Part shown: piece after piece, positions 1-39,068 of the stretch
Layout: each line of letters starts with the position of its first letter
How positions within the stretch are numbered: position 1 is the stretch's first letter
Source of the DNA: Chitinophagales bacterium
GTDB taxonomy: Bacteria; Bacteroidota; Bacteroidia; Chitinophagales; Chitinophagaceae
Assembly: GCA_026936105.1 (NCBI GenBank)
Contig: JAIXKI010000023.1
Location: 35,484-99,483, forward strand
Length of the DNA: 64,000 nucleotides
Direction: 5' to 3'
Notes under the pieces: generated by a model
The model's database searches: none
What the model was told of the DNA's origin: nothing
Seen by the model: only the letters and a program-made list of their open reading frames with translations
Made by a program: the position numbers and the translations under genes

Positions 1-5
1 AGAAT

Positions 6-2134
6 GTCGCAGTGGTTACAAACTAATTCCTCACTCTTATCCATTAAGTAATTAGGACTTCGCTACCTTAATGGTCGCAGTGGTTACAAACTAATTCCTC
101 ACTCTTATCATAATAATGATTATTTATTCTATTGGGAAAATGAAAGTCGCAGTGGTTACAAACTAATTCCTCACTCTTATTATCATGGATGATGGCATTG
201 GAGTCTTAGGCAAGTCGCAGTGGTTACAAACTAATTCCTCACTCTTATTGCTCTAACATTAGGAAAAGAGTGTTCGTTTCACAGTCGCAGTGGTTACAAA
301 CTAATTCCTCACTCTTATATCAACATTTACCGATTTGCAACGCCGTCAAATTGTCGCAGTGGTTACAAACTAATTCCTCACTCTTATTATTAAAGAAGTC
401 ATTTGAAGGTGACTACCCGGAAGTCGCAGTGGTTACAAACTAATTCCTCACTCTTATACGTAAGTGTCTCGCTTGTAGGAGACACAAAACTGTTGTCGCA
501 GTGGTTACAAACTAATTCCTCACTCTTATGCAGCAAATCATCAATCTGAATAAGAACATTGGATTGGTCGCAGTGGTTACAAACTAATTCCTCACTCTTA
601 TTTAATGCCCATGTAGTATATTGACCTTTTATAAGTCGCAGTGGTTACAAACTAATTCCTCACTCTTGTTACCGAATTTTATTATATGGATGGCACCCAT
701 TGGAAGTCGCAGTGGTTACAAACTAATTCCTCACTCTTATAGGAGAAAATGTTAGATAATCAGGAAGCCCAGGGACAGTCGCAGTGGTTACAAACTAATT
801 CCTCACTCTTATTCTCTGGACTTGAGCCTACTCCAAGCGAGTAGGATATGTCGCAGTGGTTACAAACTAATTCCTCACTCTTATAGAGAGAGGACGACTA
901 TCTCTCTGGTCTTGAGCGTCGCAGTGGTTACAAACTAATTCCTCACTCTTATCCAAAATATTTATGAGGAGAGGCAGAAATAGATGTCGCAGTGGTTACA
1001 AACTAATTCCTCACTCTTATTCATTATGACATTAGTGGCAATGATGTTGTTTGTCGCAGTGGTTACAAACTAATTCCTCACTCTTATTTAAGTTCTTCTC
1101 GAAGTTCGAGAAGAACAGAGTCGCAGTGGTTACAAACTAATTCCTCACTCTTATAGGACGATTACCTCTCTGGCCTTGAGCCCACTCCGTCGCAGTGGTT
1201 ACAAACTAATTCCTCACTCTTATACTCTATAAAGCCTCTGACAAAAGAGGAACAAGAGTCGCAGTGGTTACAAACTAATTCCTCACTCTTATAAAAAAAA
1301 CAAAAAAGCAAATGTATATTGACAACGTCGCAGTGGTTACAAACTAATTCCTCACTCTTATGAGAGGTAGGGAAAGCTAAAGGAGGCGATGACTTAGTCG
1401 CAGTGGTTACAAACTAATTCCTCACTCTTATATCCAATCGTTTGATATAGACACTTATCAGCGGGTCGCAGTGGTTACAAACTAATTCCTCACTCTTATG
1501 ATCTATTTTATTTTACCTTTGTAAAACTTTATGGATAGTCGCAGTGGTTACAAACTAATTCCTCACTCTTATCTCCACGAGCCCGGTGAAATTGTAGTAT
1601 CGGTGAAATAAGTCGCAGTGGTTACAAACTAATTCCTCACTCTTATCGTTCATAGTCAAGGGGTGGAATCTCCTTGTTAACAGTCGCAGTGGTTACAAAC
1701 TAATTCCTCACTCTTATTCTTCTCTTAAAAATGTATAGGGCCTGCCAAGACAGGTCGCAGTGGTTACAAACTAATTCCTCACTCTTATAATTAAAAACCA
1801 ATTAGTTATGATTACTACATTAAGTCGCAGTGGTTACAAACTAATTCCTCACTCTTATCTAAAAAAATAAAAAATCATGAAGATGTTCAATTGTCGCAGT
1901 GGTTACAAACTAATTCCTCACTCTTATCCCCCCGAAGATATCCAAAAGATGTTGGATAGTATTGTCGCAGTGGTTACAAACTAATTCCTCACTCTTATAA
2001 AAAAATATTTTCCTTACGACACATTGAAAGGTCGCAGTGGTTACAAACTAATTCCTCACTCTTATAATAAGAACAGAAGAGTGGCTGTCGAGGGCATAAG
2101 TCGCAGTGGTTACAAACTAATTCCTCACTCTTAT
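6..2134 (-). CRISPR. CRISPR array with 31 repeats and 30 spacers, truncated by the left window edge; belongs to the adjacent type III-D-like cas operon
   Basis: The 35-nt direct repeat GTCGCAGTGGTTACAAACTAATTCCTCACTCTTAT (as written on +) occurs 31 times, first at 6-40 and last at 2100-2134. Spacers are 32-39 nt and all different. The repeat at 635-669 has one substitution (CTTGT instead of CTTAT). Strand is set to minus for three reasons: the cas operon is on minus, the leader lies on the cas2 side, and the repeat read on minus ends in ACTGCGAC, close to the ATTGCGAC/ATTGAAAC 8-nt crRNA tags known from type III systems. Confidence 0.97.
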
Positions 2135-2217
2135 AGCATTCAATTGTGAATAGATTGAGTATGAGGGCCTTATATGTAAAAGAGCTGTAAATAATCCGGC
2201 TTTTTTCTGCATGGCCA
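2135..2217 (-). promoter_or_regulatory. Putative CRISPR leader between the cas2 stop and the first (newest) repeat
   Basis: An 83-nt non-coding, AT-rich stretch lies between the cas2 stop (2218-2220) and the repeat at 2100-2134. I could not recognise a clear Bacteroidota -7 TAnnTTTG box. Confidence 0.5.
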
Positions 2218-2532
2218 TTAAAAAACTTCTGTATGTTTTTCTCCCAGCAAATATTTCAAATCAGCTGCGAAGCTACCGATAATTTTCATATTCCGAAAGG
2301 ATGTTTTGCTGATAGCAAAGCTGATCAGTTTATCTTCGGGATATTCTCCGGTATCAGTAAACTTTTGCAGCCTTTTCCAAAGTTCTTTGTTCCTGTGCGG
2401 GGCCATCAACCCCGTAAATACCGAGTATTGTATCCTTTCGTAGCCCGATCGCTCCAACAATTTAGCTATTTTAGCACGCTTTTTATTATCTGAAATATCA
2501 TAGCTGATAAGAAAAATGTTTTTCTTATTCAT
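2218..2532 (-). CDS. cas2: CRISPR-associated endoribonuclease Cas2
   Basis: 104 aa. The N-terminal LISYDISDNKKRAKIAKLLERSGYERIQYSVF matches the Cas2 ferredoxin-fold signature (YDIs...R..v.k.L...G.riQ.SVF). Its ATG overlaps the cas1 stop (ATGA), and it lies next to the array. Confidence 0.93.
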   Translation of the reverse strand: MNKKNIFLISYDISDNKKRAKIAKLLERSGYERIQYSVFTGLMAPHRNKELWKRLQKFTDTGEYPEDKLISFAISKTSFRNMKIIGSFAADLKYLLGEKHTEVF

Positions 2533-3563
2533 GATTCAAAGTTTTTTTCAATTTGCTTTTTCAGGTCATAGGCCAATTGCAATATGTGGTTCTTCATGGC
2601 CGTAACACGGTTATCAAACTTCGTTTTTTCTTCCAGCCAATCATTGAAGAAAGGGATCAGTAAGCTTCTGCCTTTTTTGTTAAGAATATAGCCGTACTTC
2701 TCATTCGTTTCAAACCAATCGGGCTGAATAGTTTGCCGCATGATCAGCTGAGCCAGCAATTGGTCTGCTTTGGGCCGGAAAGGTTCAATTACATCAAAAG
2801 CCAATGACGGCGTTTGATATTCATTGGCGTGCCAGATACTTATCTGGCTGTCAAGTCCTGCACAGGCCAGTGCTGTTTCCACCTGGTGATAGAGCATGCC
2901 ATATATATAGTTAAGCATAGCATTAACAGCATCTCCGGCAGGCCTGTAGCTTCTTCCCTGCATGTTCCATCCTTCTGACTGTGCCATCAGGCTTACAACC
3001 TGCCAATAATATTTTGCATTATTGCCTTCCCAACCGCGCAACCATTGCAGAAATTGCTGCTCCTCGCTAATAATAAGGGATTTTTGCTCCAGGTTTTTAA
3101 CGGCCGTTATTATTTGCAGCATGCTGCTTTCAGCTACTTTTGCCAATGCAGTTTTCCTGTTTGCCCACCAGTTAATATTTTTTAACTGCCCTTCTGTTTT
3201 TAGCAAAAGCATCTGCATAATCCATTTTAATGATTCTTTGCTTTTTGAAAATTCATATTGCTTTTTGCGAAGATCGCTGTGCCCCGAAGACAAAACTGAA
3301 TTAATTCTGACAACCGGCTGGCCGATATGGTCAAGTAATATCAGCGGTATATTGTTTTCTGCAGCGAGGATCATGGCGCTGCTTGTAATATTTACTGCTT
3401 TGGTTATAAGAATGCTGCTGATGCGCTGCGGGCTGATGATCCTGTTAAGGGAATTTGATTCCACCTGGAAGCACCGGTTGCGCTGGCTTAGCTGAAGGCC
3501 GTAAGTGTTTAATACGAGTTGCATGTAGCAGGGTTTAAAATTTAATATAGCTGTTTGCTCCAT
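2529..3563 (-). CDS. cas1: CRISPR-associated integrase Cas1
   Basis: 344 aa. It carries the NAMLNYIYGML motif and the catalytic-region motif WHANEYQTPSLAFDVIEPFRPKAD (H....sL..D..EpfRp..D). It is translationally coupled to cas2 and starts 2 nt after the RT C-terminal ORF. Confidence 0.93.
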   Translation of the reverse strand: MEQTAILNFKPCYMQLVLNTYGLQLSQRNRCFQVESNSLNRIISPQRISSILITKAVNITSSAMILAAENNIPLILLDHIGQPVVRINSVLSSGHSDLRKKQYEFSKSKESLKWIMQMLLLKTEGQLKNINWWANRKTALAKVAESSMLQIITAVKNLEQKSLIISEEQQFLQWLRGWEGNNAKYYWQVVSLMAQSEGWNMQGRSYRPAGDAVNAMLNYIYGMLYHQVETALACAGLDSQISIWHANEYQTPSLAFDVIEPFRPKADQLLAQLIMRQTIQPDWFETNEKYGYILNKKGRSLLIPFFNDWLEEKTKFDNRVTAMKNHILQLAYDLKKQIEKNFES

Positions 3564-3565
3564 AT

Positions 3566-3889
3566 TCAGGAATAAGGAAAATCATTCCAGGAAAAACTTT
3601 CCGCAAAAGGTTTTGTATTGTAGGCATCGTCATACATGCTGCTCAGCCTCTTTACCACCGGATGCTGATGCCCATATACCATTTGCAAAAAGCGCAGTTT
3701 TCCCTGCAGGTGCTCTTCAAACTGGCCTATCCATTCGGCCGGTGTATGTCCTTTTGACACTGCTGAAAATTCCAGTACATGCTTGAAACGTTTCAGGTTG
3801 CTTTCCAGGTCGGTTAGGAAGGCTTCCGGCAGTACCGGCCTGTCTTTCAATATCAGCCCCGTAACCATTTTTTCATCCGATTCGCCCAT
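3566..3889 (-). CDS. C-terminal (motif 7 / thumb) part of the reverse transcriptase, separated from the N-terminal part by an in-frame TAG
   Basis: 107 aa. It begins ...MVTGLILKDRPVLPE (a VTG motif). It is in the same frame as 3893-4603; only TAG (3893-3895) and TGG (3890-3892) lie between the two ORFs. Confidence 0.75.
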   Translation of the reverse strand: MGESDEKMVTGLILKDRPVLPEAFLTDLESNLKRFKHVLEFSAVSKGHTPAEWIGQFEEHLQGKLRFLQMVYGHQHPVVKRLSSMYDDAYNTKPFAESFSWNDFPYS

Positions 3890-3892
3890 CCA

Positions 3893-4603
3893 CTATACCT
3901 TTTCCATGTTTATGGTAAATCCTTTTTTGCCGATCATATCCTGTATGGTATAGTACTGCTCAATGCTAATGGGTTGGTTGGCAGAAAAAGTAAGGTCATC
4001 CACGTAGCGGGAATATGTCATTTTGTTTTGCAGGGAGTAACTTAACAGATCTGCATCCAGTTCACGGGTGGCAAAATTGCTGAGCACCGGAGAGGTTGGG
4101 CTGCCCATGGGCAGCCTGCCATTATAAGTAGTAAACTCTGCCAAAAAGGAACTGAGTTCCGTATTGAACTGAAAAGGTGCAGAACGGAATATGCCGGCAA
4201 CACGCATGCGGCTTACCTGGTGAAAGAAATCTTTCAGGTCAATGTTCACCATGTACTTTCTGCCGCAATGTAGCCTGGCATTGGTAAGAATGTTCCTTTT
4301 CTTATTAGCGCTTTTGGGTTGCTGAATAAATCCATAAGCAGCCCGGCTGCGGCAAAAAAAATAAGCGGCCTGCAGGTGGTCATTGAGTTTTCGCAATGCC
4401 TTTTTAAGATCTTTTGCAGGCGCTTCTATCAACCGCTGCTTCCCTTTTTGTTTTCTGACCTCAAAAACAGAATAAGGCTTTTCCAAACGCAGTTTCAGGA
4501 GTTCCGGCAGGCCGGTTTGCAGCAAACCGGCCAGGTCTGAAATACTCTTTACCCTGCATAGCTGGTGGGAAAGGGCTGTCATGTGTTCCTTTGAAAAGGC
4601 CAT
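3893..4603 (-). CDS. Reverse transcriptase (RT motifs 1-6) with retron-like signatures, truncated by an in-frame TAG
   Basis: 236 aa. Motifs seen: ILTNARLHCGRKYMVNIDLKDFFHQV (NAxxH followed by the DxxDFF motif), LPMGSPTSPVLSNF, YSRYVDDLTFS (YxDD box) and GFTINMEKV (motif 6). It lies immediately upstream of cas1-cas2. Confidence 0.88.
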   Translation of the reverse strand: MAFSKEHMTALSHQLCRVKSISDLAGLLQTGLPELLKLRLEKPYSVFEVRKQKGKQRLIEAPAKDLKKALRKLNDHLQAAYFFCRSRAAYGFIQQPKSANKKRNILTNARLHCGRKYMVNIDLKDFFHQVSRMRVAGIFRSAPFQFNTELSSFLAEFTTYNGRLPMGSPTSPVLSNFATRELDADLLSYSLQNKMTYSRYVDDLTFSANQPISIEQYYTIQDMIGKKGFTINMEKV

Positions 4604-4742
4604 GCCATAGCTATTTCCCTGTTAAATTACCAACAGTTTTTAAGAAATGCAACTGCTGGTCCGCAATGTCAAAGAGCATTTGTTTTCAACTTTAATATAT
4701 AAAATACATTTTTATCATAAACTTTTTATTCCCCGTCACTTT

Positions 4743-5879
4743 TTACATTGCTTTAATAAAATTTTTCAGTACTTCATCATTTCCGATAATTTCAATGCCT
4801 GCCAGTCTAATGCCCAATAATTTAGCCCTGTCTTTTTGTTCAGCCTTTAGCTTCGAAAAATCGTTCAGGGCAAATAAATAGTAATTGACCCATAATCCAA
4901 ATTCTTTTTTAAGTGTTGCTGCTTTATAGATAGTATTAGTAAAAAGGTAGCTTATTTTACCGGCATCATTGTCTGCAATGTCAGTTTTACATTCTATTAC
5001 GTACAATGCATTATTGTGTGTAAAAATAATGTCGTACTCATTAGGAGCATTTCCTTTTATCAACTGTACTCCCAAGCCTATTGCATCATCACTTAAGCCA
5101 AGTATATTTTTTATTTTTGTATATATATATTCCTCAAGCCATTCGCCGGTAATATATTTTATTTCCTTTTCTGTAATCGAATCATCGTTCTCAAACATTA
5201 CTCCGTTTTCGGTAAAAATCATCGCCTCATGGAAAAGGGCTGTTTCAGCAGGCTTTTCCCTTCTCAATTTTTTACCCCTGAATTGCTTTCTTATTTTCTC
5301 TGCACAGGACAATAATTTTTCTTTCTGTTCTCCAATAAAGGCTTTAAACAGTGTTTCGGTCTGTGCTGCGGGTTTTAGTAAGGTGTTTTTTGAGCCAAAT
5401 GATTTTTCGGGCACACTAACTCCATACGACATCAGGTAATCTTTCAAATCCACCCGGAATAAAAGGGATTGAGTGCTGTTTTCCATTAAAGGGAATACCC
5501 GGTGAATTTCATTTTTTTCTATAGGAACATAAAATATTTCCGAATTGCTTTTTCCCGAAAAGTGAATATACACACCCAATGACATGATTTTTGTGCCGCC
5601 GGTGATATTTACCAGCACTTTATCTTCTTCATTTATATTTAATTCATCCGATAGTTTTGAATCAATATCGTGCAAAGAATCTTCAACTACTGTTACAATA
5701 CGGCACAGTTCTTTACGAATGCCCGCAGCATTAATAATATTATCAGTCATTTTTCTTTCAGGAGATTCCATTTTTTCTGTTGACAAAAAAATATACCTGT
5801 CGGCAACCTTTTGTTCTCTGATAAATAATACATTTTGAATAGCCTGATCGCTTACGATATTTACTATGATTCTACTCAT
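4743..5879 (-). CDS. card1: Card1/Can2-type effector: CARF sensor fused to a PD-(D/E)xK nuclease
   Basis: 378 aa. The N-terminus IVNIVSDQAIQNVLFI ... NITGGTKIMS resembles the DUF1887-type CARF. The C-terminus NEYDIIFTHNNALYVIECKT gives a D...ExK restriction-endonuclease-like motif. It lies inside the type III operon. Confidence 0.8.
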   Translation of the reverse strand: MSRIIVNIVSDQAIQNVLFIREQKVADRYIFLSTEKMESPERKMTDNIINAAGIRKELCRIVTVVEDSLHDIDSKLSDELNINEEDKVLVNITGGTKIMSLGVYIHFSGKSNSEIFYVPIEKNEIHRVFPLMENSTQSLLFRVDLKDYLMSYGVSVPEKSFGSKNTLLKPAAQTETLFKAFIGEQKEKLLSCAEKIRKQFRGKKLRREKPAETALFHEAMIFTENGVMFENDDSITEKEIKYITGEWLEEYIYTKIKNILGLSDDAIGLGVQLIKGNAPNEYDIIFTHNNALYVIECKTDIADNDAGKISYLFTNTIYKAATLKKEFGLWVNYYLFALNDFSKLKAEQKDRAKLLGIRLAGIEIIGNDEVLKNFIKAM

Positions 5880-5902
5880 ATTATATTTTAAAAAAGTAAG
5901 AT

Positions 5903-6634
5903 TTAAGTTCTGTATACCGTTCCAAATCCAATGCCCGGCACCTGGCCGATTCCTATGCCATCAGGTATATGCAGGTTGCAAAAAAATGTACAATCGAAAG
6001 GTAGTTTTTTTTCTTTATAAACCTGGATTAACTTTTTAGTAGCAAGAATAGAAGATACATAAGTAATAAAAGGGAAATTGTACCTGAATCCGGTACCGGC
6101 TATCATTGTATTAATTTGCCTTGAAAGACATTCATCAAGTAATTCTGCCAGTACTTTTAGTTCACCGGATGCCAAAAAAACTTTGTATCGATGTGAATCA
6201 AGCGGCAGCCAGTTTATTACTCTATACTGTTGCTTAATGGTTAGTAATTTAATCGTATGCTTTTCTAAAGGAAATGATTTGTATTCCGAGAGGTCAACAT
6301 AATTTTGCTTCGTTCTTAAAAATTTATTTTTTATATGCTTATTCTCCTCTTTATTGAGCAGTGCAAGAATTTCGTTCACTGCATTGATTCCCTCATTTAT
6401 AGCCAATAAAGCAGCTTTGCCTTTTACCGGCTTGAATTGGATAAGCGGGTAGCGTTTTATAGTGTCATTTGTTTCTTCACTTCGGTTATAAAAAAGCTCT
6501 GTATCAATTCCCTCAGTTTGCCCGGATTCTCTCAGATCATGAATAGCAGCGGAAAAAGTTTTTTTAAAATGCACTCCATCATTTTCTTCCAATGAAAAAT
6601 TAAAAACGGTCATTTGCGTATAGACAGTATGCAT
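5903..6634 (-). CDS. cas6: Cas6-like crRNA-processing endoribonuclease
   Basis: 243 aa. It has a C-terminal glycine-rich loop GIGIGQVPGIGFG (the GhGxxxxxGhG Cas6 hallmark), a typical Cas6 size, and lies within the cas operon. Confidence 0.7.
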   Translation of the reverse strand: MHTVYTQMTVFNFSLEENDGVHFKKTFSAAIHDLRESGQTEGIDTELFYNRSEETNDTIKRYPLIQFKPVKGKAALLAINEGINAVNEILALLNKEENKHIKNKFLRTKQNYVDLSEYKSFPLEKHTIKLLTIKQQYRVINWLPLDSHRYKVFLASGELKVLAELLDECLSRQINTMIAGTGFRYNFPFITYVSSILATKKLIQVYKEKKLPFDCTFFCNLHIPDGIGIGQVPGIGFGTVYRT

Positions 6635-6869
6635 ATTTAAACCAGGTTTAAAAAATAATTTAAAAAATCATCAGGTATTACGATATTATTATTACCTCTT
6701 GACAAATCCACAATGTCCATATAAAATGTATCATCTTTAATTTCATTAATTTAAGATGTTTTATCAGGATTTTCGAAGTAAGATAGCTATCAATTATTGC
6801 CAGATATTGAATTGCACTAAAGGTCTTTTTGCCATTTTTTTGTTTGTCTTTCGTTGGAAGATATAATAA

Positions 6870-7442
6870 TTACCTGTGATGCATTTGTAGAATATGTTTA
6901 TTAGGTTTACTTTTTTTTCCACCACAATCAACAAAGATGATGGTTTTCGATTTTTTTGTATTATTTATTTCTTCAATAACATTCTTTGCAAATTTGTCTG
7001 TAAACTTATTTTTATAGCGTATTTCTTTGATATACTGTTGTGATAAACTGCTTGCCCAAAGACCTTCTCCGTCCGGGCAGCCCTTTATAATAAAAATATT
7101 TTTATTGGTATAAGCAGAATTTTTCTGTAGCAGTTGTTTAAATAATGCATAAACAAATACGGATTTGCCGCAATCAGGAGGGCCAATAAAAGCAATAACA
7201 ATATTTTTTTGAGGCACCGGATAATATACCTCAAATGCTGATTTACTTATGAATGCATCGGGTGTATTCGTTGATATAATTTTAAGAGCACTATGATGCT
7301 TTGGATCGAAAGAAGCAATCCATTTAGCAGTATTTGCTTTTACAACTTTTTTATATAAAATAAGATACAACCCAATAGGACACCGCCTGTCAACAACTAT
7401 TCCTTTATTGCTGTTCATATTTCTTGGCAGAGAAATTGCCAA
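6870..7442 (-). CDS. csx3: Csx3 (Crn3 ring-nuclease)-like domain fused to a P-loop NTPase; the 5' end is uncertain (open frame continues to 7556)
   Basis: KGIVVDRRCPIGLYLILYKK...WIASFDPKHHSALKIIS resembles the Csx3 core (kGVVisGRgPiWL...vAvYDPrl.aVVV). It is followed by Walker A GPPDCGKS and Walker B IIFVDCGG. The annotated start is a TTG. A further 38 upstream in-frame codons are stop-free but contain no ATG, GTG or TTG. Confidence 0.6.
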   Translation of the reverse strand: MAISLPRNMNSNKGIVVDRRCPIGLYLILYKKVVKANTAKWIASFDPKHHSALKIISTNTPDAFISKSAFEVYYPVPQKNIVIAFIGPPDCGKSVFVYALFKQLLQKNSAYTNKNIFIIKGCPDGEGLWASSLSQQYIKEIRYKNKFTDKFAKNVIEEINNTKKSKTIIFVDCGGKKSKPNKHILQMHHR

Positions 7443-7551
7443 GGTTTCTTCTGTCTTTATTTTATCAGTTTTGAAGAATACTCCAGGGAAATCGTACTCA
7501 AGATCAGTAACCGGCAGGTTTAATATGATAGAATTATTGTCTATATGATTA

Positions 7552-7869
7552 TTATTTTATTCTTTTCAATAATCCAAATTTATACCCTATTGCTTCTATT
7601 TGATCAATTGAAGAAAGCACTTGCCCTTCTTTAATCCTTTTTTTCAGCTGAAATATTAAAGCTTCATCCCCAACATGTTGTTTATATTGATTTCTGTTCA
7701 TTGGTATTTCTACCTGCAGTAAGTTTGATAAGATATTGCAGGTGCTTTGATGACCTATATAGGAAACAAAATCGTTTTGAATTATTTTTTTTGCATCTTC
7801 AAGGGTAAGGTATTTATATTCATAAGTGCCATAGCAAGTAACGATAGATGTATTCAGTAAAGCCAGCAT
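7552..7869 (-). CDS. crn2: DUF1874-family protein (Crn2 / AcrIII-1-type cyclic tetra-adenylate ring nuclease)
   Basis: 105 aa. YIGHQSTCNILSNLL...MNRNQYKQHVGDEALIFQLKKRIKEGQVL parallels the SIGHDSTIQLINSL...KNRVEIKL...QISQRLEEGKIL core of the viral AcrIII-1/DUF1874 family. It is on the same strand and inside the cas operon. Confidence 0.72.
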   Translation of the reverse strand: MLALLNTSIVTCYGTYEYKYLTLEDAKKIIQNDFVSYIGHQSTCNILSNLLQVEIPMNRNQYKQHVGDEALIFQLKKRIKEGQVLSSIDQIEAIGYKFGLLKRIK

Positions 7870-7898
7870 TTTTTATATCTTATTTAATGAATAATATT

Positions 7899-9002
7899 TT
7901 AAGAAACATTCTCCTTTCTTTCTGTATAATCATGTGTTCCATAGTGGCGCAATATGAGAATATTACCATCTTTTGTGCAGGTGATTCTCATTTGCTGGTT
8001 AACTCTGAAATGGTATATACTCGTATTGCCTGAATAGGGCGTCAATTGTATTCCGCCACTAGATAATTTCTGAACGCCCCCGGTGCTTAATATTAATGAA
8101 ATAGATGCTAATAATTCCTGTATTTCTACCTTCTTCCTTTTATCGGTAAGTTTTTGAAAATCTTCTTTGAAACTCTGCTCATATTGTATGTTCGGAAGGA
8201 TTAATAAATCATCAGTCAAAACTTCACTTTTAATATTATTCCACGACAGAAGTCCCCAATTTGAAAGTCCGTAAACATGATCCCATAATTCAAGAAACAA
8301 TGTTTGAGGCAGGTTTGATATTTTATCTTTGGGTTGGTAATGATCATTTCCTAATAGTGTAAATAACAAAGCATTTTGTTTGAACAAATACTTATCAATG
8401 GAAACAGGTAATTTGGGTATTTCAATCAATCCGCCGCTTTCAAAAATATAAACTATCCGGTCTGCATAAAAAGTTCCAAAAGTATTTAAAAAACCCTGCA
8501 GGCTTTTAAAGCCGCCTGTCAGATTGAAAATTACTTCATACCGGCTTTCTCTATATTCAGGAATTGTATTATCAAGATATTCTAAGAGGTTTTTTATGCC
8601 TTTATCGAAATTGGATTTGGATTCAGTATTCAATTCCGGTACAGAATAAGAAATACATTGATGCCCTTTTTCTTTAATATACTGACTTACAATATCCATA
8701 GTTACTGCAGCTAAAAAAGTATCTGTACCAATTAATAAATGAATATCAGAGGCACTGTCGTTGTACTTATCGTAATAACTTAAAATTCCATTTAGTTCAG
8801 CACTGTAAGATTTGGCAATGCCATCATCGCCGGTCAGTAATGTTTTTATTAAAGTAGTTTTCAGTTCTTCTATTCGATTTTTAAATTGAACTGGAATTTC
8901 ATGTTCTTTCTTATTGGAGAAATCAATTATTTCATTTCTGAAAGCTTCATCTGCTTTTTTAGTAAGCAGGCTTGTGCCAATGGATGAAAGGATAACCTTC
9001 AT
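7899..9002 (-). CDS. CARF-RelE fusion (Cami1-like cOA-activated mRNA interferase)
   Basis: 367 aa. The N-terminal CARF carries SSIGTSLL and NLTGGFKSLQG. The C-terminal IYHFRVNQQMRITCTKDGNILILRHYGTHDY matches the RelE/ParE toxin signature (lRvGdyRiiy....i.il.v.hR). Confidence 0.75.
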   Translation of the reverse strand: MKVILSSIGTSLLTKKADEAFRNEIIDFSNKKEHEIPVQFKNRIEELKTTLIKTLLTGDDGIAKSYSAELNGILSYYDKYNDSASDIHLLIGTDTFLAAVTMDIVSQYIKEKGHQCISYSVPELNTESKSNFDKGIKNLLEYLDNTIPEYRESRYEVIFNLTGGFKSLQGFLNTFGTFYADRIVYIFESGGLIEIPKLPVSIDKYLFKQNALLFTLLGNDHYQPKDKISNLPQTLFLELWDHVYGLSNWGLLSWNNIKSEVLTDDLLILPNIQYEQSFKEDFQKLTDKRKKVEIQELLASISLILSTGGVQKLSSGGIQLTPYSGNTSIYHFRVNQQMRITCTKDGNILILRHYGTHDYTERKENVS

Positions 9003-9022
9003 AAGAATTATTTATAAGCTTC

Positions 9023-11098
9023 TTATTTAACAACATCGGTAGGTTCGGGTAGTACAGGTCGATTTTTATATTCATTAAGCTTAGTACCCTGCTCGCCATT
9101 ATAGTAGGGAGATTCAGAAGGCGGTTTAACTTCTATTTCCATATATCTTGTCCTGTCTAACCAGGCCTCTCCTGTCACATTATCCTGCTTAAATTGCAGC
9201 ATGGTTTTGAGTTGTTTCAGGCGTGGCACTTCCCAAAGGGATTTTGCATTGTTTTTTTCTTTGTCAGTCAGTTTGCTTAAAACGTAGGTTTCAAACTGGA
9301 TTTTAAAGTCGTTTGTACTCTTATCTTTTTGCTCCGACAAAAACCATTTACTATTACCATCAAATATTTTTTTATAACGTTCCTGCCTGTCTGATAAAAC
9401 AAGCGTAGGCTCAATTTGCACAGAGCCTAAGCCAAGTGGTTTACCCATGCCGAGTTTGTGGCAATATTTTTCTTTTTCATTTTCTTTGGGCAATTCCAGC
9501 ACAAAAAGCAGGCAGCCGAGTTCTTCGGTGCTGAGGTTTTCGAAGCGGATTTTTGATTTAAAAAGAACATTCTCTTTTACGGGTATTATTGTGCCTGGAT
9601 GACTTTTTGTTTTTATGCCTGACTTTTCTACCCATGAATACGGTGCCTGGTTATCATGCGGTGTCTTTCTATGCCAATACAATTTGCTGCCCCTAATAAG
9701 TGCTTCTTTATCATTCCAATGTTTAAGCTGCTTTAACGGCGTGCCTGTTTTAAAAGGCTGTTCCAAATAATGCTGAAAAGTAGTAGGCTTGGGGGAAGAT
9801 AGAATTTTGGGTTGATACGGTGAACCTGGAAGTTTCCACTCAGTTTCTTCAGTATTTGCATCTTCAAAAAATACCCGTGAGGCAAATTCTTTCCTTTCAT
9901 CCTTTGACTTATCATCAGGCTTCTGACTTTTCTCTTTTAAAAACCCGAAAATAGCTTCCGCCATATCAAGTGTATATTTCCTGTGTTCCAAGGGCAGGTG
10001 GTCTTTTACTGAATAGTCATAAGGTATGCGGTATCTTTCTGTATGCCCGAAAGAAATGATTGTACCGCCCTTTGCAAAATAGAAAACCGGTATGCCGTCA
10101 TCTTTGAATTTATCTTCACGGTGCAATTTTTCAATTACATCATAATATTGATTTTCGTTCTTTCCTTTTTCATATTTTTTTGCATCAGTTTCGTCATTTA
10201 TATAGGCTTTAATAACCTCTTCGTCAACTAAAAAAGGCTTAACTTTTACGTCCGGTAACTCAAACAAATAATGGTGATACTTGTTATTCATCATGCCTGT
10301 ATAAACTTTCCATCCTTTCTCAACTTTTTCATACGTGAACTTCTTTTCAGAATAATTGTGATCTTCAAACCTTGAAGCTTTTACAGGTCGGATATAATAC
10401 CTATCCTCATTCTTCTTATGGAATAAATACCCATGAAGGATGTCATCGTGGTTGACTGGTACTTTTTTATTGTACAACTCTTTCAGGCTACTCCTGTCTG
10501 CCATTCCTCTTTGTGAGAATCTTTTATCATCGCTAAATCCAAGCTTAGAATAACTCACAATTTCTGCCAGCGTTCTTATCATTCCCCTCAAAGAACTTCC
10601 CGGTATAACAGGCTGTTCGTTTATAACGAAAAAATTTTCCATTTCGCCTCTTATAAATAAAGGCGTTTTTGTTGTAATGTTTAAATCAATATAGCCCGTA
10701 TATCTATTATCATAATATTTATCAAAATCCGGAATATCCTGTGCCGGAATTACTGTTTCGTTTAACGGCACAAAATTGTATGGCGCCCTTGCGGGGTCTT
10801 GAATGTTTTTTCGTGAATCTGGCACAGCACTAGATTGGCGTTGCTGGTTATGGCGTTGACCTTGATATTGTGTCTGGTGTTGTTGCTGTGAACGTTGTGG
10901 TTGGCCTTGCTTTTTTACATAATCTTTCCCTTCAAACCTGATAAGTTTCACAGGCCCGCCGTTGTTATCGAATTCAATTTCTTTCCCATTCATATCATCG
11001 GTTAATCCAAAATCGCCCATAACGGGCATTGGATTTTTAATGCCATCACCGGTAATTTTCCATGTATTTTTTTCTTTAATTAGTTTTCCTTTTTTCAT
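9023..11098 (-). CDS. Large RAMP (Cas7-like with insertions, TIGR03986-like) carrying an extra N-terminal domain and a Gln-rich linker
   Basis: 691 aa. It has the APYNFVPL start motif of the TIGR03986 RAMP family at aa ~105, the IPGSSLRGMIRTL RAMP motif, and the C-terminal glycine loop KLGMGKPLGLGSVQIEP. Residues 1-104 are additional. Confidence 0.72.
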   Translation of the reverse strand: MKKGKLIKEKNTWKITGDGIKNPMPVMGDFGLTDDMNGKEIEFDNNGGPVKLIRFEGKDYVKKQGQPQRSQQQHQTQYQGQRHNQQRQSSAVPDSRKNIQDPARAPYNFVPLNETVIPAQDIPDFDKYYDNRYTGYIDLNITTKTPLFIRGEMENFFVINEQPVIPGSSLRGMIRTLAEIVSYSKLGFSDDKRFSQRGMADRSSLKELYNKKVPVNHDDILHGYLFHKKNEDRYYIRPVKASRFEDHNYSEKKFTYEKVEKGWKVYTGMMNNKYHHYLFELPDVKVKPFLVDEEVIKAYINDETDAKKYEKGKNENQYYDVIEKLHREDKFKDDGIPVFYFAKGGTIISFGHTERYRIPYDYSVKDHLPLEHRKYTLDMAEAIFGFLKEKSQKPDDKSKDERKEFASRVFFEDANTEETEWKLPGSPYQPKILSSPKPTTFQHYLEQPFKTGTPLKQLKHWNDKEALIRGSKLYWHRKTPHDNQAPYSWVEKSGIKTKSHPGTIIPVKENVLFKSKIRFENLSTEELGCLLFVLELPKENEKEKYCHKLGMGKPLGLGSVQIEPTLVLSDRQERYKKIFDGNSKWFLSEQKDKSTNDFKIQFETYVLSKLTDKEKNNAKSLWEVPRLKQLKTMLQFKQDNVTGEAWLDRTRYMEIEVKPPSESPYYNGEQGTKLNEYKNRPVLPEPTDVVK

Positions 11099-11618
11099 TG
11101 TCAGAATTTTTTATTGCAAATTCAACAAATCTACTATCTACATAGCCCGCCTGCCGAATATCATCGGTATAACCAATATAGTTACGGGTTCTAAGAAATA
11201 TATCTTCCGAATTAAACTTCTCATTGTTTTTTAAAGGATGGGCAATAACGCTTCGAAGTTTCATATCGGTTTCTATATATTCCATTTCCTTACCCGCATC
11301 ATCTGTTCTTAATCTGCCTTTTAATTCGTTGCCGCTTCGCCAGATATGAATTTCTTTTGTCTCAGTAAAAGCCCGTATGCGAACGATATTATCTTTTTTA
11401 ATTTCTTCTTCCGAATAAACTTGTTTGTTTTTTTTTGAATCGTATAACCAGCTGACTTTTTTGTTTTTGACCTCTCCTACAAATACGCCATGATGCTGCC
11501 AGAGAACGATGTACCCTTCTTTAATTTCTTCAGCTACTACCACAATAGAGGTATAGTTATACTCTACTGAATTACTCTTAATAGGTTTTGCAACATATCT
11601 TGTTCCTTCTTTACTCAT
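11076..11618 (-). CDS. csx19: Small cas-operon protein, possibly Csx19 (call based on position only)
   Basis: 180 aa. It lies between two Cas7-type genes, as csx19 does in type III-D loci. It overlaps the downstream gene by 23 nt. I recognise no motif directly. Confidence 0.4.
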   Translation of the reverse strand: MSKEGTRYVAKPIKSNSVEYNYTSIVVVAEEIKEGYIVLWQHHGVFVGEVKNKKVSWLYDSKKNKQVYSEEEIKKDNIVRIRAFTETKEIHIWRSGNELKGRLRTDDAGKEMEYIETDMKLRSVIAHPLKNNEKFNSEDIFLRTRNYIGYTDDIRQAGYVDSRFVEFAIKNSDNEKRKTN

Positions 11619-11619
11619 T

Positions 11620-13083
11620 TTATTCAGTTTTCAGGTTGTTAATAAATGTTTGTTCCCACTCAGTAATTGTTGGCAATAAATCCTGCTTTTTAAATGTTAT
11701 TATTCCATTTTCACCGGCTTCTATTACCAATTGTTTTCCACCATAATTCACGGTGGCATGCCTGCCGGTAAGGATACCCCTGCCAATGCTTTTTTCCCCG
11801 CCTATAGGCAGGTCGGCAGTCCACAGGTCTTTCAGCAAATGCAGCAACAGCAAAGCATCAGTTTCTTTAAATTCTTTGCCGGAGAGAGCAAAATCTAAGA
11901 TCAGTTTGCCTTCTTCCCCGTTTTTGTTTTTCCACAATGGCTTGGAATTGAATAAAGCCCCGCTCATAGTGCCGCCGGTAAACCTGTCAATTTTTATCCG
12001 GTTTTGCGTCATTCCTTTTCCTGCAATATAGTTTTCTTCCACCCGGAGTTTTCCCCGAATTTCATCTTTTTCCTGATTTTGATTTTCTACATATCCAAAC
12101 AGTTCTTTTATCTTTTCTTCTGCATTGTCTATTGGCAGTGTATTGAGTATTTTCAATGCCCTGTGCCTGATAGCGCCTCTGACGGATTTGCCTGTTAATA
12201 CATTTTTGCTGTTGCTTTTCAAATGTGTTTTATCGGGTTCCTTAGCATCAATGCCGTAAGCCCCAATAATGATGGAATTTTTAATGCCGAATTCTGCATA
12301 AATATTAAATGATTTCAAAGGACATTTTATTTCTGAAATCTTTATACTTTCGAAACCAGGTCTTATATCATAGTACTCTTTTTCCCATACACATCTTTCC
12401 TCCAATGCTTTCAAATATGTAAACCATTCTTCCGAACGATTTAATTTTTTGTCTGAAAAATCAAAATACCAGGCATTGAAACCGGAGCATTGAATTTTAC
12501 CAAAGCCTGTATTGGTTTGTGCACCAATCCTGAAACTATCATCGTTTAAAATGGCTGATATGTAACTAATGTATTCCTCAAAAATCTTAGGATTGCTTAT
12601 TACTTTTCTTACGGTTACTTCCGCTCTTAGATTAAAAGTAATTTCCGGTTCCAGCAACTCGTAATCGTACTTTGCCTTTTTTTCTGTGATGCCGGTTTTG
12701 TAATCAATTTTTATCCCATCCCGCCGGGTTATTTTATTTTTAGTATCACAAGTGGTAAGCAGATCGTCTATTACAAAATGGCATTGATATTGGTCCGGGT
12801 CGGGTTTCCCGTTAATTTTTTTCTGCCCTGTACCCCAAAAAAACTTTGCTTCTTTTGTCTTCATTTTAGTTTCACCATACCATTCTGCAAAATGCTGTTT
12901 TAAAACGCCGGCGAAAGTAGATGCAGGAATGTAGGGCTTTCCATCAGGAAGGCGCATTATTTCAATATCTGCAACATCACCTATACCTTTACCAATAAGC
13001 ACAGGTGTTAATGTTTTTATTTCGGCATGTATTATGTATCTGCCGATTATCTTATGTTGTTCTTTATATAAGCAATCACCCAT
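11620..13083 (-). CDS. Double RAMP protein (Cas7-Cas7 fusion, Csm3/Cmr4-like)
   Basis: 487 aa. The first RAMP has TPVLIGKG...GKPYIPASTFAGVLKQ. The second has LTGKSVRGAIRHRALK, KIDRFTGGTMSGALF and IGGEKSIGRGIL. Confidence 0.78.
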   Translation of the reverse strand: MGDCLYKEQHKIIGRYIIHAEIKTLTPVLIGKGIGDVADIEIMRLPDGKPYIPASTFAGVLKQHFAEWYGETKMKTKEAKFFWGTGQKKINGKPDPDQYQCHFVIDDLLTTCDTKNKITRRDGIKIDYKTGITEKKAKYDYELLEPEITFNLRAEVTVRKVISNPKIFEEYISYISAILNDDSFRIGAQTNTGFGKIQCSGFNAWYFDFSDKKLNRSEEWFTYLKALEERCVWEKEYYDIRPGFESIKISEIKCPLKSFNIYAEFGIKNSIIIGAYGIDAKEPDKTHLKSNSKNVLTGKSVRGAIRHRALKILNTLPIDNAEEKIKELFGYVENQNQEKDEIRGKLRVEENYIAGKGMTQNRIKIDRFTGGTMSGALFNSKPLWKNKNGEEGKLILDFALSGKEFKETDALLLLHLLKDLWTADLPIGGEKSIGRGILTGRHATVNYGGKQLVIEAGENGIITFKKQDLLPTITEWEQTFINNLKTE

Positions 13084-15235
13084 TATTCTCCTCCTTTAAT
13101 TTTTTAAGTTTTCTAAGCATCCTGAAGAAAGTAAGCCAATAAATTGTATCATGGTCATCGTCAAACATAAATTTATGGTCTCTATTAACAAGCCCAACTT
13201 TTGACAATTTCTCGCCTGCAGGTTTCCCCATAGTATCTTTTATCCAGTTTTGCACTTCGGCTCCGGTTGCTTTCGTTTCAATCATTCTTTCCATCCGGCC
13301 TATAAGATGGTTGCTTAAATCAAGGTATTTTTTTTGTTGAGCATCTTTTATCGCATTGGCCTTCTTGCTGGTATTCTTTTCAACTTGTTTGTATTGGGCC
13401 AGAATGTCATCAAGTATTTTAACAGACGCATTATTTCCCGTTGGTTTATTTCCTTCTGCTTCGTGTTTTTTAAAGATGTCAATAGCTTTATACGATTCAA
13501 AGCGGATTTTACCAAAACCCTGTTCCTTGTATTCACCTAAGCCTTCTTTGGTTGCTTTTTGAATAGCGGTTTCAATATCTGTTGCACTCTTTAAATTAAG
13601 AACAAAAGCACTACCTTCTTTGTAAGCCGGCATCTTTGACGATTTGGATTGCCATACGGCATTGTATTGTTCTACAGTAGTAAAGGCTGCTGCAACGTCA
13701 AGAGTTTTAGTTTCTCCATTTTCCACAAATCCAGCCAATGAAAAATATTTTTTTAATTCCGTTAGTAAATTTTTGCCGTTTGCCTCCGCTTCACCATACT
13801 CATTAAGAAGAATCAAAGGGGTTTCCAATATCAATAAATATGTATTGGAGGAATTAGCATTATTGGTATCCGCTCCAATATTTCCCTTCATTCCTAACCC
13901 ATTGCTATTGGAATTATTAGTTGTTTCTGTTTCTTTAAAGACTAATTCTACTTCGCCATATTGTGCGGAACGGCTGCGCCCAATCTGTAATTTTATTTTG
14001 TTGCCAATCGTTTGAACCAATTTGTTTAACAACTTTACGTCACCTTTAATTTTTCCCAAAAAGACTTGTTCTTCGTCAAGTGCTTCATAATAAAAAATAC
14101 TACCGCCTTCTTTTTCTTCTTCCAGGCTTTTTCCTGCTGAACGATTGGGCCTTGAATTATGGAAGAAAAAAGTTGTGTGGGGCTTTGAAATTAATATATT
14201 ACTGCCGTTAATTGTGCCAAAGCCTCCTTCCGGCTTGGTAATTTCATCTTTTTTGTCTTCAGGCTTCTTAAAAACATTCACTAAATCGTCTTCCGCTTTT
14301 TTATTTTTATACTTATGAATATGCAGTGGCAAAGGAGTAGAGCCATTATAGTATAATGATTCAAAGGAAACTTTACCGGATAAAAAAATATTGAAGAAAG
14401 AATCATCTTTATGTGCATTTTTAAAGGTAAGAGCCGCCTGCTTGATGTATTGAGAGGCAAGTAAGCCCCGCAACCGGTTGCCGCTGATTATTTTTTCAGT
14501 AAATACAGTATTTTTTTCTCCCAACTGCTGCGATAAAACTACGGGTGATAGTGTCCTTATTTCTATATCTATTGTGTCACTGTTTGCTTCAAAATCTTTC
14601 CCTAATTCATTAGAGGAAGAAAAATCAATACTACATTTAATTTTTCCAAATCCCCTGTTACGTCTTGTGCCTGCATACCGGAAATTTAAGACAGCCTCAT
14701 TAAACAACTCCTTCTCTTCTTGTTCCAGCGGTTCATTTTCACCAATATTTCCTTCAAATATCAATGGCTTAGTTTCATTTTTATTAAAAAGAAATGATTT
14801 TATAACCCTGTAATTTCGGAGGCTTGTTGGCTTTGCAATCCCATTCACAATAGCAGTTTGTTGAATTTCTGTTGTATAGAACTGTTTTATATTTTCATCG
14901 GAATACACAAACGGATTTTTTTCCATTTTATCAGGTAATGCCTGTTTAACATTCTCCCAATCCTGGACATAAAAATTTCTAAACCCAAGCTTACCTTCAT
15001 TTTGTTCAGCGCCTTCTTTTCCAAAGAGAGTATTTACTTTTTTGCATATCTCTGTTTCATCATATCCTTTCATCTCCATTACTTCAAAAAGGTTTTCTTT
15101 TAGTAAGCCTTTTACTCTCCTGCCAGGCAGATAAGGAAAGCCGGTTTTGTGAAACACAATATCTGTATCAATCAGACTACCTCCTTCACCCGAACCTGCC
15201 AGCATGTATGATTGAAGTGTAATTTTCAGTTTCAT
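13076..15235 (-). CDS. csx10: Fusion of a Cas7-like RAMP, a Csx10 (Cas5-like) RAMP and a helical C-terminal tail (possible Cas11-like small subunit)
   Basis: 719 aa. Domain 1 has LAGSGEGG..FPYLPGRRVKGLLKE ... RNRGFGKIK. Domain 2 has IRTLSPVVL...IISGNRLRGLLASQ ... GRSRSAQYGEVEL ... EQGFGKIRF. The last ~110 aa are predicted helical from composition. Start and stop overlap the neighbouring genes. Confidence 0.68.
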   Translation of the reverse strand: MKLKITLQSYMLAGSGEGGSLIDTDIVFHKTGFPYLPGRRVKGLLKENLFEVMEMKGYDETEICKKVNTLFGKEGAEQNEGKLGFRNFYVQDWENVKQALPDKMEKNPFVYSDENIKQFYTTEIQQTAIVNGIAKPTSLRNYRVIKSFLFNKNETKPLIFEGNIGENEPLEQEEKELFNEAVLNFRYAGTRRNRGFGKIKCSIDFSSSNELGKDFEANSDTIDIEIRTLSPVVLSQQLGEKNTVFTEKIISGNRLRGLLASQYIKQAALTFKNAHKDDSFFNIFLSGKVSFESLYYNGSTPLPLHIHKYKNKKAEDDLVNVFKKPEDKKDEITKPEGGFGTINGSNILISKPHTTFFFHNSRPNRSAGKSLEEEKEGGSIFYYEALDEEQVFLGKIKGDVKLLNKLVQTIGNKIKLQIGRSRSAQYGEVELVFKETETTNNSNSNGLGMKGNIGADTNNANSSNTYLLILETPLILLNEYGEAEANGKNLLTELKKYFSLAGFVENGETKTLDVAAAFTTVEQYNAVWQSKSSKMPAYKEGSAFVLNLKSATDIETAIQKATKEGLGEYKEQGFGKIRFESYKAIDIFKKHEAEGNKPTGNNASVKILDDILAQYKQVEKNTSKKANAIKDAQQKKYLDLSNHLIGRMERMIETKATGAEVQNWIKDTMGKPAGEKLSKVGLVNRDHKFMFDDDHDTIYWLTFFRMLRKLKKLKEENNG

Positions 15236-33800: not shown

Positions 33801-33912
33801 GATATTTGTTTCTGCGAAATTAACTGAAGAAACCTAAACCGGATTTTCACTCTTAAAACAATCACTATCAAATCAATTTTGTTGATATGACATCGGGAAC
33901 TATTTTTGCGCC

Positions 33913-33997
33913 GGAGAGATGGCAGAGCGGTCGAATGCGGCGGTCTTGAAAACCGTTGACTGTAACAGGTCCGGGGGTTCGAATCCCTCTCTCTCCG
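33913..33997 (+). tRNA. tRNA-Ser (anticodon TGA)
   Basis: Acceptor stem GGAGAGA/TCTCTCC, anticodon loop CTTGAAA, long variable arm and T-loop GGTTCGAATCC. Confidence 0.9.
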
Positions 33998-34003
33998 CCC
34001 AAC

Positions 34004-34030
34004 AGCAGCTTGAAGGCTGCTTTTTTATTT
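34004..34030 (+). terminator. Hairpin plus T-run between the two tRNA-Ser genes
   Basis: AGCAGC-TTGAAG-GCTGCT followed by TTTTTATTTT. Confidence 0.55.
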
Positions 34031-34048
34031 TCTTACTTTTGAAATTCA

Positions 34049-34135
34049 GGAGAGATGCCAGAGCGGTCGAATGGGACGGTCTCGAAAACCGTTGTACGGG
34101 CAACTGTACCGAGGGTTCGAATCCCTCTCTCTCCG
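34049..34135 (+). tRNA. tRNA-Ser (anticodon CGA)
   Basis: It has the same acceptor stem and T-arm as the upstream tRNA-Ser, anticodon loop CTCGAAA and a long variable arm. Confidence 0.9.
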
Positions 34136-34209
34136 CTTAAAAGATTCTGCTTTTTAATGAAATTGAGATCATCAGGTAATTCAAAGGAAGGTGATCTTAT
34201 TTTACCCGG

Positions 34210-38741: not shown

Positions 38742-39068
38742 AAATTTCTATTTTAAAGTGAAACATTTAAAAACAATAACCTGTTCATTTTTGTACAATG
38801 AAGTTTCACAAAATGAGTGCCTGATGAAAAAGAAATTATAAAATATGTAAATGAAATTTTAATTAAAGATGTATCTGTATAAATCCCCATTAATAAAATG
38901 TAAAAGAAAAGAACAGTCTCTTTTCGGCAGGCCTGTTTGACATAATATGCCATAAAGACACCGGTAAAATATCTTTATCATGCAATTGTCATCTGCCTGT
39001 ATGGAGTTAGACTTCGGGAAGGCCTGAGGCTTGCAATACTCAGAATCCAATATTTCAAAAAAGAAATG

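Follow-up and report, generated by a model that had tools for sequence, protein, structure and literature searches.

We analysed a window of 64,000 nucleotides (nt) from a Chitinophagales bacterium (GenBank assembly GCA_026936105.1, contig JAIXKI010000023.1, positions 35,484 to 99,483 of the forward strand), at the left end of which lies a CRISPR array adjoining a set of type III cas genes. Three spacers of this array (numbers 12, 13 and 17) overlap one another on a single short sequence, and the positions at which they differ are all silent in one reading frame. The explanation that we favour, to which we assign a probability of about 0.65, is that these spacers were taken from the end of one gene, existing in three diverged versions, at a favoured site that was sampled again and again, and that they give rise to CRISPR RNAs (crRNAs) antisense to the gene. 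Specifically, the target stretch would be the tail of one protein-coding gene, with its final ~16 codons, its stop codon and a few bases past it, and the three diverged versions of this gene would be carried by a mobile element or a virus. The array is transcribed from a leader next to cas2, on the minus strand of the window, and Cas6b would cut the repeats, leaving the expected 8-nt tag ACUGCGAC on each crRNA. The resulting crRNAs would be antisense to the target messenger RNA (mRNA), as is needed for a transcript to switch on a type III effector, and the expected response would be a signal sent by Cas10 to Card1 and to further CARF proteins. The clustering itself may come from an acquisition hotspot linked to transcription, from selection that retained spacers against a region both conserved and expressed, or from both.

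The overlaps, all in the same orientation, extend over 27 nt between spacers 13 and 17 (24 identical), 22 nt between spacers 17 and 12 (20 identical) and 15 nt between spacers 13 and 12 (14 identical). Taken together, the three spacers build a composite of 55 nt, in which they start at offsets 0, 6 and 18. An earlier, sequence-only reading of this window had placed them on a common target of about 60 nt; its coordinates, sequences and overlap hold, while the length has to be reduced to 55 nt. No other significant spacer–spacer match was found among the 30 spacers of the window, and the cluster was still the only match when 105 unique spacers, from the window and eight related arrays, were considered. 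Because the boundaries of the three spacers differ, the comparison supports independent acquisitions from diverged versions of one sequence, and duplication of one spacer followed by drift was rejected on the same ground. Errors of a reverse transcriptase (RT) or of sequencing were also rejected as the origin of the differences, since these are confined to third codon positions. The 3' end of spacer 13 is templated to the last base, as it agrees with the other two alleles, and both ends of spacer 17 are templated. As to the order of acquisition, spacer 12 came first, followed by its neighbour spacer 13 and, four units later, by spacer 17.

The composite has four variable columns (0-based positions 13, 16, 25 and 34), which all fall in one codon phase, one of them being three-state (T/C/A). 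In frame 2 of the plus strand the composite reads REDDYLSGLEPTPSE followed by a stop codon (R-E-D-D-Y-L-S-G-L-E-P-T-P-S-E-stop), and all 6 pairwise codon differences are synonymous, while each of the other frames contains non-synonymous differences. On the minus strand, the frame with the same third positions contains a stop codon, TAG in the spacer 13 allele or TAA in the spacer 17 allele. Both observations had been made in the sequence-only reading and are confirmed here, with the addition that plus frame 2 is the only one in which the variation is silent. Spacers 13 and 17 have nine codons in common, of which three are changed at the third base, with no change at any of the 18 remaining positions; overall, the three versions are 89-93% identical, with silent differences only. 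Silent third-base differences of this kind are the signature expected of long divergence under purifying selection.

The strength of this argument was estimated by simulation: four random variable sites fall in one phase with P = 0.025, and all are synonymous in any of the six frames with P = 0.043. The codon-phase evidence for a coding target is, on these figures, suggestive but not overwhelming. That the period-3 pattern is due to chance, with a target that is non-coding or read in another frame, can draw on the small number of variable sites and on frame 0 of the plus strand, which is also open over the whole composite. All six pairwise differences would however be replacements in frame 0, with the three-state site at the second codon position, and this, together with the low probability of a common phase and the absence of any Rfam match in the array, makes chance a very improbable explanation.

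The strand from which the array is read was addressed by comparison with related loci, found through their RT. In all these relatives the array lies downstream of cas2, in the direction of the cas genes. A motif within the interval of ~85 nt between cas2 and the first repeat is common to the window and to the related loci L005 and L010. Five repeat variants, read in the cas direction, share a conserved 3' two-thirds (TTA.TTT.TAA.CACT.CGAC) and a variable 5' third; the conserved 3' end reads ...ACTGCGAC, and its terminal ...CACTGCGAC is kept across the five related repeat variants. In L005 and in L006/L008, a degenerate repeat terminates the array at the cas-distal end. The conserved leader by cas2, the conserved repeat 3' end and the degenerate cas-distal repeats of the relatives thus establish transcription of the array on the minus strand, from the leader at 2135-2217. 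Since the coding sense of the target is probably that of the plus strand, the predicted crRNAs would be antisense to the corresponding mRNA, as the sequence-only reading had proposed, and the geometry of a type III target, with the crRNA complementary to the target transcript, is found for this inferred coding sense. The overlaps allow the protospacer 3' flanks to be reconstructed, and these agree with the anti-tag at 0/8 and 3/8 positions; they are therefore not self-like, and no pairing with the tag is expected.

A similar orientation is suggested for the array as a whole. The purine fraction of the window spacers on the plus strand is 0.557 (p = 0.005-0.01), to be compared with an average of 0.541 for the sense strands of long host open frames. 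The spacers of L005 are 53.7% purine on the equivalent strand, and in all the related arrays except the five-spacer array of L009 (0.50) the spacers are pyrimidine-rich in the cas direction. In addition, two spacers (11 and 20) show a Shine-Dalgarno (SD) sequence with ATG in the plus sense, and the sole minus-sense candidate is weak. From the purine skew, in the window and in eight related arrays, and from the spacers with SD and ATG, the storage of antisense guides seems to hold for most of the array. Counts of open frames per spacer, also considered as a strand test, were not discriminating (43 vs 50). An antisense bias has been documented in type III spacers acquired in nature (PMC13575424) as well as in RT-Cas1 modules (PMC6821258).

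The cas genes that accompany the array, listed in Table 1 with the other features of the locus, assign it to type III. All the open reading frames (ORFs) of at least 80 aa examined between 2218 and 16833 are on the minus strand, and they include Cas10, Csx10, Csx19 and the TIGR03986 and Csx7-like RAMPs, from which the locus is classified as type III-D, with accessory genes of the cyclic-oligoadenylate (cOA) type. The type III interference presumed in the sequence-only reading is consistent with this gene content, which further comprises Cas6b, Card1 and ring nucleases. Both a Cas6 and a conserved 8-nt tag at the repeat 3' end are found, and crRNA processing is predicted from them. The palm motif of Cas10 is AGDD in place of GGDD, and no HD-domain match was obtained for this protein by text scan or family searches. 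It is a short Cas10 without a detectable HD domain, yet many cOA-related genes stand alongside it (Card1, the Cas_APE2256 CARF protein, the Csx3-like and the B116-like proteins).

Table 1. Coordinates of the array, of selected spacers and of the cas genes in the 64,000-nt window
Feature	Position	Strand	Description
CRISPR array	1..2134	minus	31 repeats of 35 nt, 30 complete spacers of 32-39 nt
Spacer 12	813..849	minus	37 nt; plus strand reads S-G-L-E-P-T-P-S-E-stop, then GATAT; oldest of the three
Spacer 13	885..917	minus	33 nt; plus strand reads R-E-D-D-Y-L-S-G-L-E; adjoins spacer 12
Spacer 17	1155..1188	minus	34 nt; plus strand reads D-D-Y-L-S-G-L-E-P-T; newest of the three
Spacer 23	1573..1611	minus	39 nt, longest spacer; plus strand is a sense 23S ribosomal RNA (rRNA) fragment, then ATAA
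Leader	2135..2217	minus	between the cas2 stop and the first (newest-side) repeat; motif ATGCAnAAAAA.GC..ATT...TACAGCT.TT
cas2	2218..2532	minus	TIGR01573, E = 4.8e-15
cas1	2529..3563	minus	TIGR00287, E = 6.8e-58
Stand-alone RT, group II intron/retron-like	3566..4603	minus	YVDD motif; in-frame TAG at 3893-3895
Card1-type effector	4743..5879	minus	CARF domain and endonuclease domain
Cas6b-family crRNA endonuclease	5903..6634	minus	family match
Csx3-like protein with P-loop	6870..7442	minus	3' end differs by indels from Logan assemblies
STIV B116-like protein, ring nuclease family member	7552..7869	minus	family match
Cas_APE2256 CARF protein	7899..9002	minus	weak RelE-like C-terminal match
TIGR03986 fused RAMP, type III	9023..11098	minus	E = 1.2e-124
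csx19	11076..11618	minus	TIGR03984
Csx7/Cmr4-like RAMP	11620..13083	minus	family match
Csx10-like RAMP	13076..15235	minus	TIGR02674
Cas10, 533 aa	15232..16833	minus	Cas10/Cmr2 palm2 PF22335; weak Csm1/Cmr2 matches

Three spacers on one site are far more than random sampling would give. With uniform sampling of 30 spacers over a genome of 40 kb, the expected number of triples on the same strand and within 18 nt is about 6e-4, so that either a hotspot or strong retention is needed. Transcription-dependent hotspots of this kind have been described: in S. thermophilus type III-A, 20% of the resistant mutants targeting early genes hit one small gene, and the hotspots lie at highly transcribed, structured sites (PMC13575424). 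Furthermore, type III interference is reported to tolerate mutations in the protospacer and in its flanks (PMC5576922).

The last point bears on the arms-race record that the sequence-only reading had seen in the cluster, namely that silent point mutations let the target escape each spacer in turn and that the host answered with a new one. Three different alleles at one site, and the neighbouring position of spacers 12 and 13 in the array, are what such a sequence of events would leave. The amount and kind of variation fit it poorly: three of nine shared codons have changed without any replacement, which looks like old neutral divergence and not like single escape hits. Escape by point mutation is moreover unlikely given the reported tolerance of type III interference to target mutations (PMC5576922), and the newer spacers overlap the older site instead of moving elsewhere. 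We therefore do not retain this part of the earlier interpretation, and regard an arms race as improbable.

Two mechanistic accounts of the spacing were examined and rejected. Primed adaptation of the type I or type II kind does not apply, as no Cas3/Cas9 machinery was found in the locus (there was no Cas3, Cas9 or Cas12 match among the ORFs of at least 80 aa at 2218-16833), and the offsets 0/6/18 fit neither a 6-nt cleavage geometry nor the order of acquisition. Reading the 5' offsets as products of 6-nt type III cleavage fails as well: the duplex formed by the oldest spacer does not include positions 1 and 7, there is a shift of 2-3 nt in phase with respect to spacer 13 and the order is wrong. 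The offsets were consequently treated as a coincidence.

The source of the three spacers was sought in several sequence collections. IMG/VR held no match to the target, whether scanned with an exact-type pattern or with either of two patterns back-translated from its peptide. A blastn search of the 55-nt composite against GenBank phages and PLSDB plasmids returned chance matches only (18-33 nt, E >= 1); the whole array gave one chance match against phages and, against plasmids, no match for the target spacers, the only spacer matched being number 23, in records bearing rrn operons. The back-translated peptide DDYLSGLEPTP had no match in JGI metagenome contigs or GTDB genomes, and the peptide padded to 40 aa found no candidate with three shared 5-mers among 5.8 billion protein clusters. 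Other parts of the array behaved alike: IMG/VR held no match to back-translated spacers 28 and 11 or to exact cores of spacers 23, 24 and 25, and no target was found among phages for the arrays of L005 and L006. Spacers of RT-linked arrays are typically without matches, as are most CRISPR spacers of all types (PMC5513706).

In terms of our preferred explanation, the coding pattern of the variation agrees with the conserved gene end, of diverged invaders or alleles, put forward in the sequence-only reading, and we infer on this basis that the target is the end of a protein-coding gene of an invader; the protospacer proposed there was absent from the collections searched. An annotated host gene is an unlikely source, provided that the other annotated proteins of this metagenome-assembled genome (MAG) are also in the protein-cluster set, which includes at least one of its NCBI proteins (P0001). 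The coding interpretation predicts an ORF ending in ...EDDYLSGLEPTPSE and a stop codon, on the strand equal to the plus strand of the window. Several points weigh against this explanation as a whole. The protospacer was found neither in IMG/VR, GenBank phages and PLSDB nor in the JGI contigs, GTDB and protein clusters; the codon argument consists of four sites only, with P about 0.025-0.043; the stop codon is present in one spacer only (spacer 12), the final bases of which could be untemplated; and the left part of the array is absent from the window.

The same searches bear on two further explanations. The three versions might be paralogous copies, from a gene family or a repeated module with a conserved C-terminus, in one element met in one or a few encounters. 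The sequences do not separate alleles from paralogues, and spacers 12 and 13 were acquired consecutively. Nevertheless, not one protein of the 5.8-billion-cluster set has as many as three 5-residue words in common with the peptide, which indicates that no known widespread family has this tail, and a hotspot would still be needed; paralogues thus seem an improbable source. The alternative of an RNA virus or another RNA-only replicon would explain the absence from DNA collections, and it accords with an array that is RT-linked and has no match in the collections searched. Against it, the protein set containing the Logan assemblies of public runs also gave no match. These assemblies cover RNA libraries too. 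If the 30 spacers came from a genome of ~4 kb, about 7 overlapping pairs would be expected, and one cluster is seen. According to a statement of 2017, an RNA virus had not yet been recognised as the target of a CRISPR spacer in any prokaryote, and lack of a match is the common fate of spacers of all CRISPR types (PMC5513706). We consider an RNA-only source very unlikely.

Acquisition from RNA is a distinct question, raised by spacer 23 and by the RT gene. Spacer 23 came to light in the whole-array search against plasmids, and Rfam places its match inside the 23S rRNA gene, on the same strand. It matches 32/33 nt of a Chryseobacterium rrn record, 31/33 nt of Aureibacter pATrrn and 28/29 nt of a Parabacteroides record. 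To the 33-nt match can be added the first two bases, which fall on a variable rRNA position and are presumed templated, so that about 35 of the 39 nt are rRNA. The final ATAA stands where all three reference rRNAs, which come from other organisms and not from the host's own 23S, have GATG; were these bases templated, the host 23S rRNA gene would have to read ...GGTGAAATAA. Spacer 23 looks like an RNA-derived spacer with a non-coded 3' tail. The crRNA predicted from it would pair with 23S rRNA in antisense, except at four mismatched positions beside the tag.

The ends of the spacers in general are A-rich. The fraction of A in the last 4 nt of the sense strand is 0.46 in the window, against 0.31 in the spacer interior (p = 6e-4), 0.41 against 0.32 in the relatives (p = 4e-4) and 0.42 against 0.32 for the 105 spacers of the window and L005-L013 (p = 2e-6). 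No mirrored enrichment of T was seen at the spacer 5' end. Positions 5-8 from the 5' end are A-rich as well. RT-Cas1 proteins leave 3' tails of 1-6 non-coded nucleotides, mostly dA, which mark spacers acquired from RNA in vivo (bioRxiv 10.1101/2023.09.01.555893), and rRNA-derived type III spacers are reported to be counter-selected, being lost when the effector complex is present (PMC8860600).

The RT adjoins cas1, lying directly upstream of it, a layout shared by the relatives, and belongs to a family of ~345-aa proteins linked to the same type III-D loci. Its in-frame stop results from the change of an AAG lysine codon to TAG, and, falling shortly behind the YVDD motif, leaves two ORFs of 236 and 107 aa; this lysine is conserved in the closest homologues, which are 345-347 aa long and uninterrupted. 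The C-terminal part is 73% identical to the closest intact homologue, and the same TAG occurs in three independent short-read Logan assemblies (SRR29092744, SRR29243423 and SRR29243421). Of the features of an RT-assisted adaptation module, the RT next to cas1 and the YxDD motif are present and an intact reading frame is not. An RT fragment identical to the one here is annotated at NCBI under a Chitinophagales MAG. A different lineage of this RT family, to which L006 (7798-8834), L007, L008 and L009 belong, has the gene split into two overlapping ORF calls of 69 and 277 aa, on nine contigs from several samples; interruption of the RT may thus recur in these loci. In L006 and L007, two arrays with different repeat variants flank the adaptation genes.

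On these data, it is conceivable that the RT beside Cas1-Cas2, at a time when its frame was still without the stop codon, made copies of pieces of an abundant transcript, and that the cluster marks a favoured region near the 3' end of this transcript or at a hairpin. Such RNA capture would be compatible with the hotspot explanation preferred here. The position of the RT next to cas1, its YVDD motif and its family, the A enrichment at the sense 3' ends and a hairpin of spacer 12 at the gene end (CCTACTC-CAAGC-GAGTAGG, spanning the inferred stop codon) all agree with it. So do the ATAA of spacer 23, which resembles RT-Cas1 tails (bioRxiv 10.1101/2023.09.01.555893), the restriction of DNA matches to this one spacer, as in RT-linked arrays (PMC5513706), and a gene-end bias of the F. 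saccharivorans RT-Cas1, in so far as it is cited in PMC6821258. Other indications speak against it. The RT carries an in-frame TAG, here and in the three independent assemblies; spacers 13 and 17 have no untemplated tail; hairpins are not enriched array-wide (p = 0.56); the A-rich ends may reflect a sequence preference and not tailing (PMC6821258); and type III-A systems devoid of RT also take spacers from rRNA loci and transcribed hotspots (PMC8860600, PMC13575424). Altogether we hold RNA capture to be possible, though on the unlikely side. Somewhat more doubtful is the broader proposal that a stand-alone RT, together with Cas1-Cas2, carried out adaptation from RNA and that this array is its natural record; the cluster would then mark a hotspot near the 3' end or hairpin of an invader transcript present in abundance, and the tail of spacer 23 would be of the terminal-transferase kind. 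Cas10 is activated only if the guide pairs at its tag-proximal end. If the RNA-derived reading were true, the tail of spacer 23, located at that end, would let a spacer against self rRNA persist without autoimmunity.

With respect to the array itself, the repeat reads GTCGCAGTGGTTACAAACTAATTCCTCACTCTTAT on the plus strand and ATAAGAGTGAGGAATTAGTTTGTAACCACTGCGAC in the cas direction, and was not found in the genome and metagenome collections searched. Its copies span 6 to 2134, and the array runs past the left edge of the window; the Logan contigs bearing the locus end at the array, and the missing left part is not recoverable from them. Repeat 10 (635-669) is the sole variant copy (…CTCTTGT vs …CTCTTAT on the plus strand), a change that falls, in the cas direction, on the repeat's second base. 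Spacers 11 (741-777) and 20 (1362-1396), in which the Shine-Dalgarno sequence and ATG read AGGAGAAAATG and AAGGAGGCGATG, respectively, look like captured gene starts, and in spacer 20 a TAG stop lies 18 nt upstream, as is typical of a gene junction. Strong hairpins are present in spacers 16 (1088-1119), 7 (458-494), 18 (1224-1257) and 12 (813-849), that of spacer 16 being an 11-bp near-perfect palindrome (z = -5.9); five of the 30 spacers have a hairpin z < -2, and hairpin enrichment of the whole array over random host windows was not significant (the p = 0.56 given above). No Rfam match lies within the array, and no spacer has a self-target within the 64-kb window.

The cas region is ~99.9% identical to four Logan contigs, over the 2.9-12.5 kb shared with each. 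Compared with one of them (L003), the window shows 3 substitutions and 4 indels, clustered at the 3' end of the Csx3-like/P-loop gene (6773-6887), so that the window ORF at 6870-7442 has another end than its counterpart in the Logan assemblies, a called gene of 222 aa; the difference is due either to variation between strains or to an error of assembly. The rest of the window looks like ordinary chromosome, without spacer matches, and holds a transfer-messenger RNA gene (tag GNTQFAMAA) and two tRNA-Ser genes, at 39068-39436 and 33912-34136.

Among known systems, the closest parallel is given by the hotspots of S. thermophilus III-A (PMC13575424), which share with the present locus the type III effector, the antisense crRNA bias and the repeated acquisition from a short transcribed region. 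That system has no RT, an early promoter lies immediately upstream of its hotspot and its phages are known, whereas the present locus is type III-D, has an RT beside cas1, is sampled at a probable gene end and draws on a source unmatched in the collections searched. The RT-Cas1 modules of types III-D and III-B, from V. vulnificus (PMC6821258), M. mediterranea (bioRxiv 10.1101/2023.09.01.555893) and F. saccharivorans (in the part reported through PMC6821258), are alike in the linkage of RT to Cas1-Cas2, the antisense bias, the rRNA-derived spacers, the A/T-rich ends and the non-coded 3' tails comparable to the ATAA of spacer 23. The present RT differs from them in being a separate gene and not a fusion, with a premature TAG and one Cas2, and is known here from sequence alone.

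Overlapping spacers have also been used in Sulfolobales CRISPRomes (PMC6858448) to assemble a piece of an unseen invader; in that case the spacers came from a community-wide pool of type I and III arrays, while here three overlapping allelic spacers stand in one array. As with Arthrospira platensis and its RT-linked type III array (PMC5513706), the spacers are essentially without database matches, but here the overlap points indirectly to a protein-coding source under purifying selection. Finally, spacers from rRNA genes, such as spacer 23, recall those acquired from rRNA and tRNA loci by the III-A system of S. epidermidis (PMC8860600). There such spacers are lost when the effector complex is present, whereas here one persists in a natural array, and it differs from them by four untemplated bases at the tag-proximal end of the guide.

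In conclusion, a type III hotspot sampled repeatedly in nature, by a type III-D locus whose adjacent RT is currently interrupted, fits our data better than an arms race, with the end of an invader gene as the probable target and the cause of the hotspot most plausibly among those proposed above. The finding leaves known CRISPR biology unchanged; resampling hotspots of type III systems are already documented (PMC13575424). The rRNA spacer with its untemplated tail and the stop codon of the RT are probably the more testable leads, spacer 23 being the more unusual item. The source of RT-linked type III spacers has been called enigmatic, and in the present array the overlap of three spacers is informative on such a source even where no database match exists, pointing to a protein-coding gene, under purifying selection, in several diverged versions. 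Spacers that tile one target within a single array are of use as a method by which the frame and the strand of the target can be inferred.

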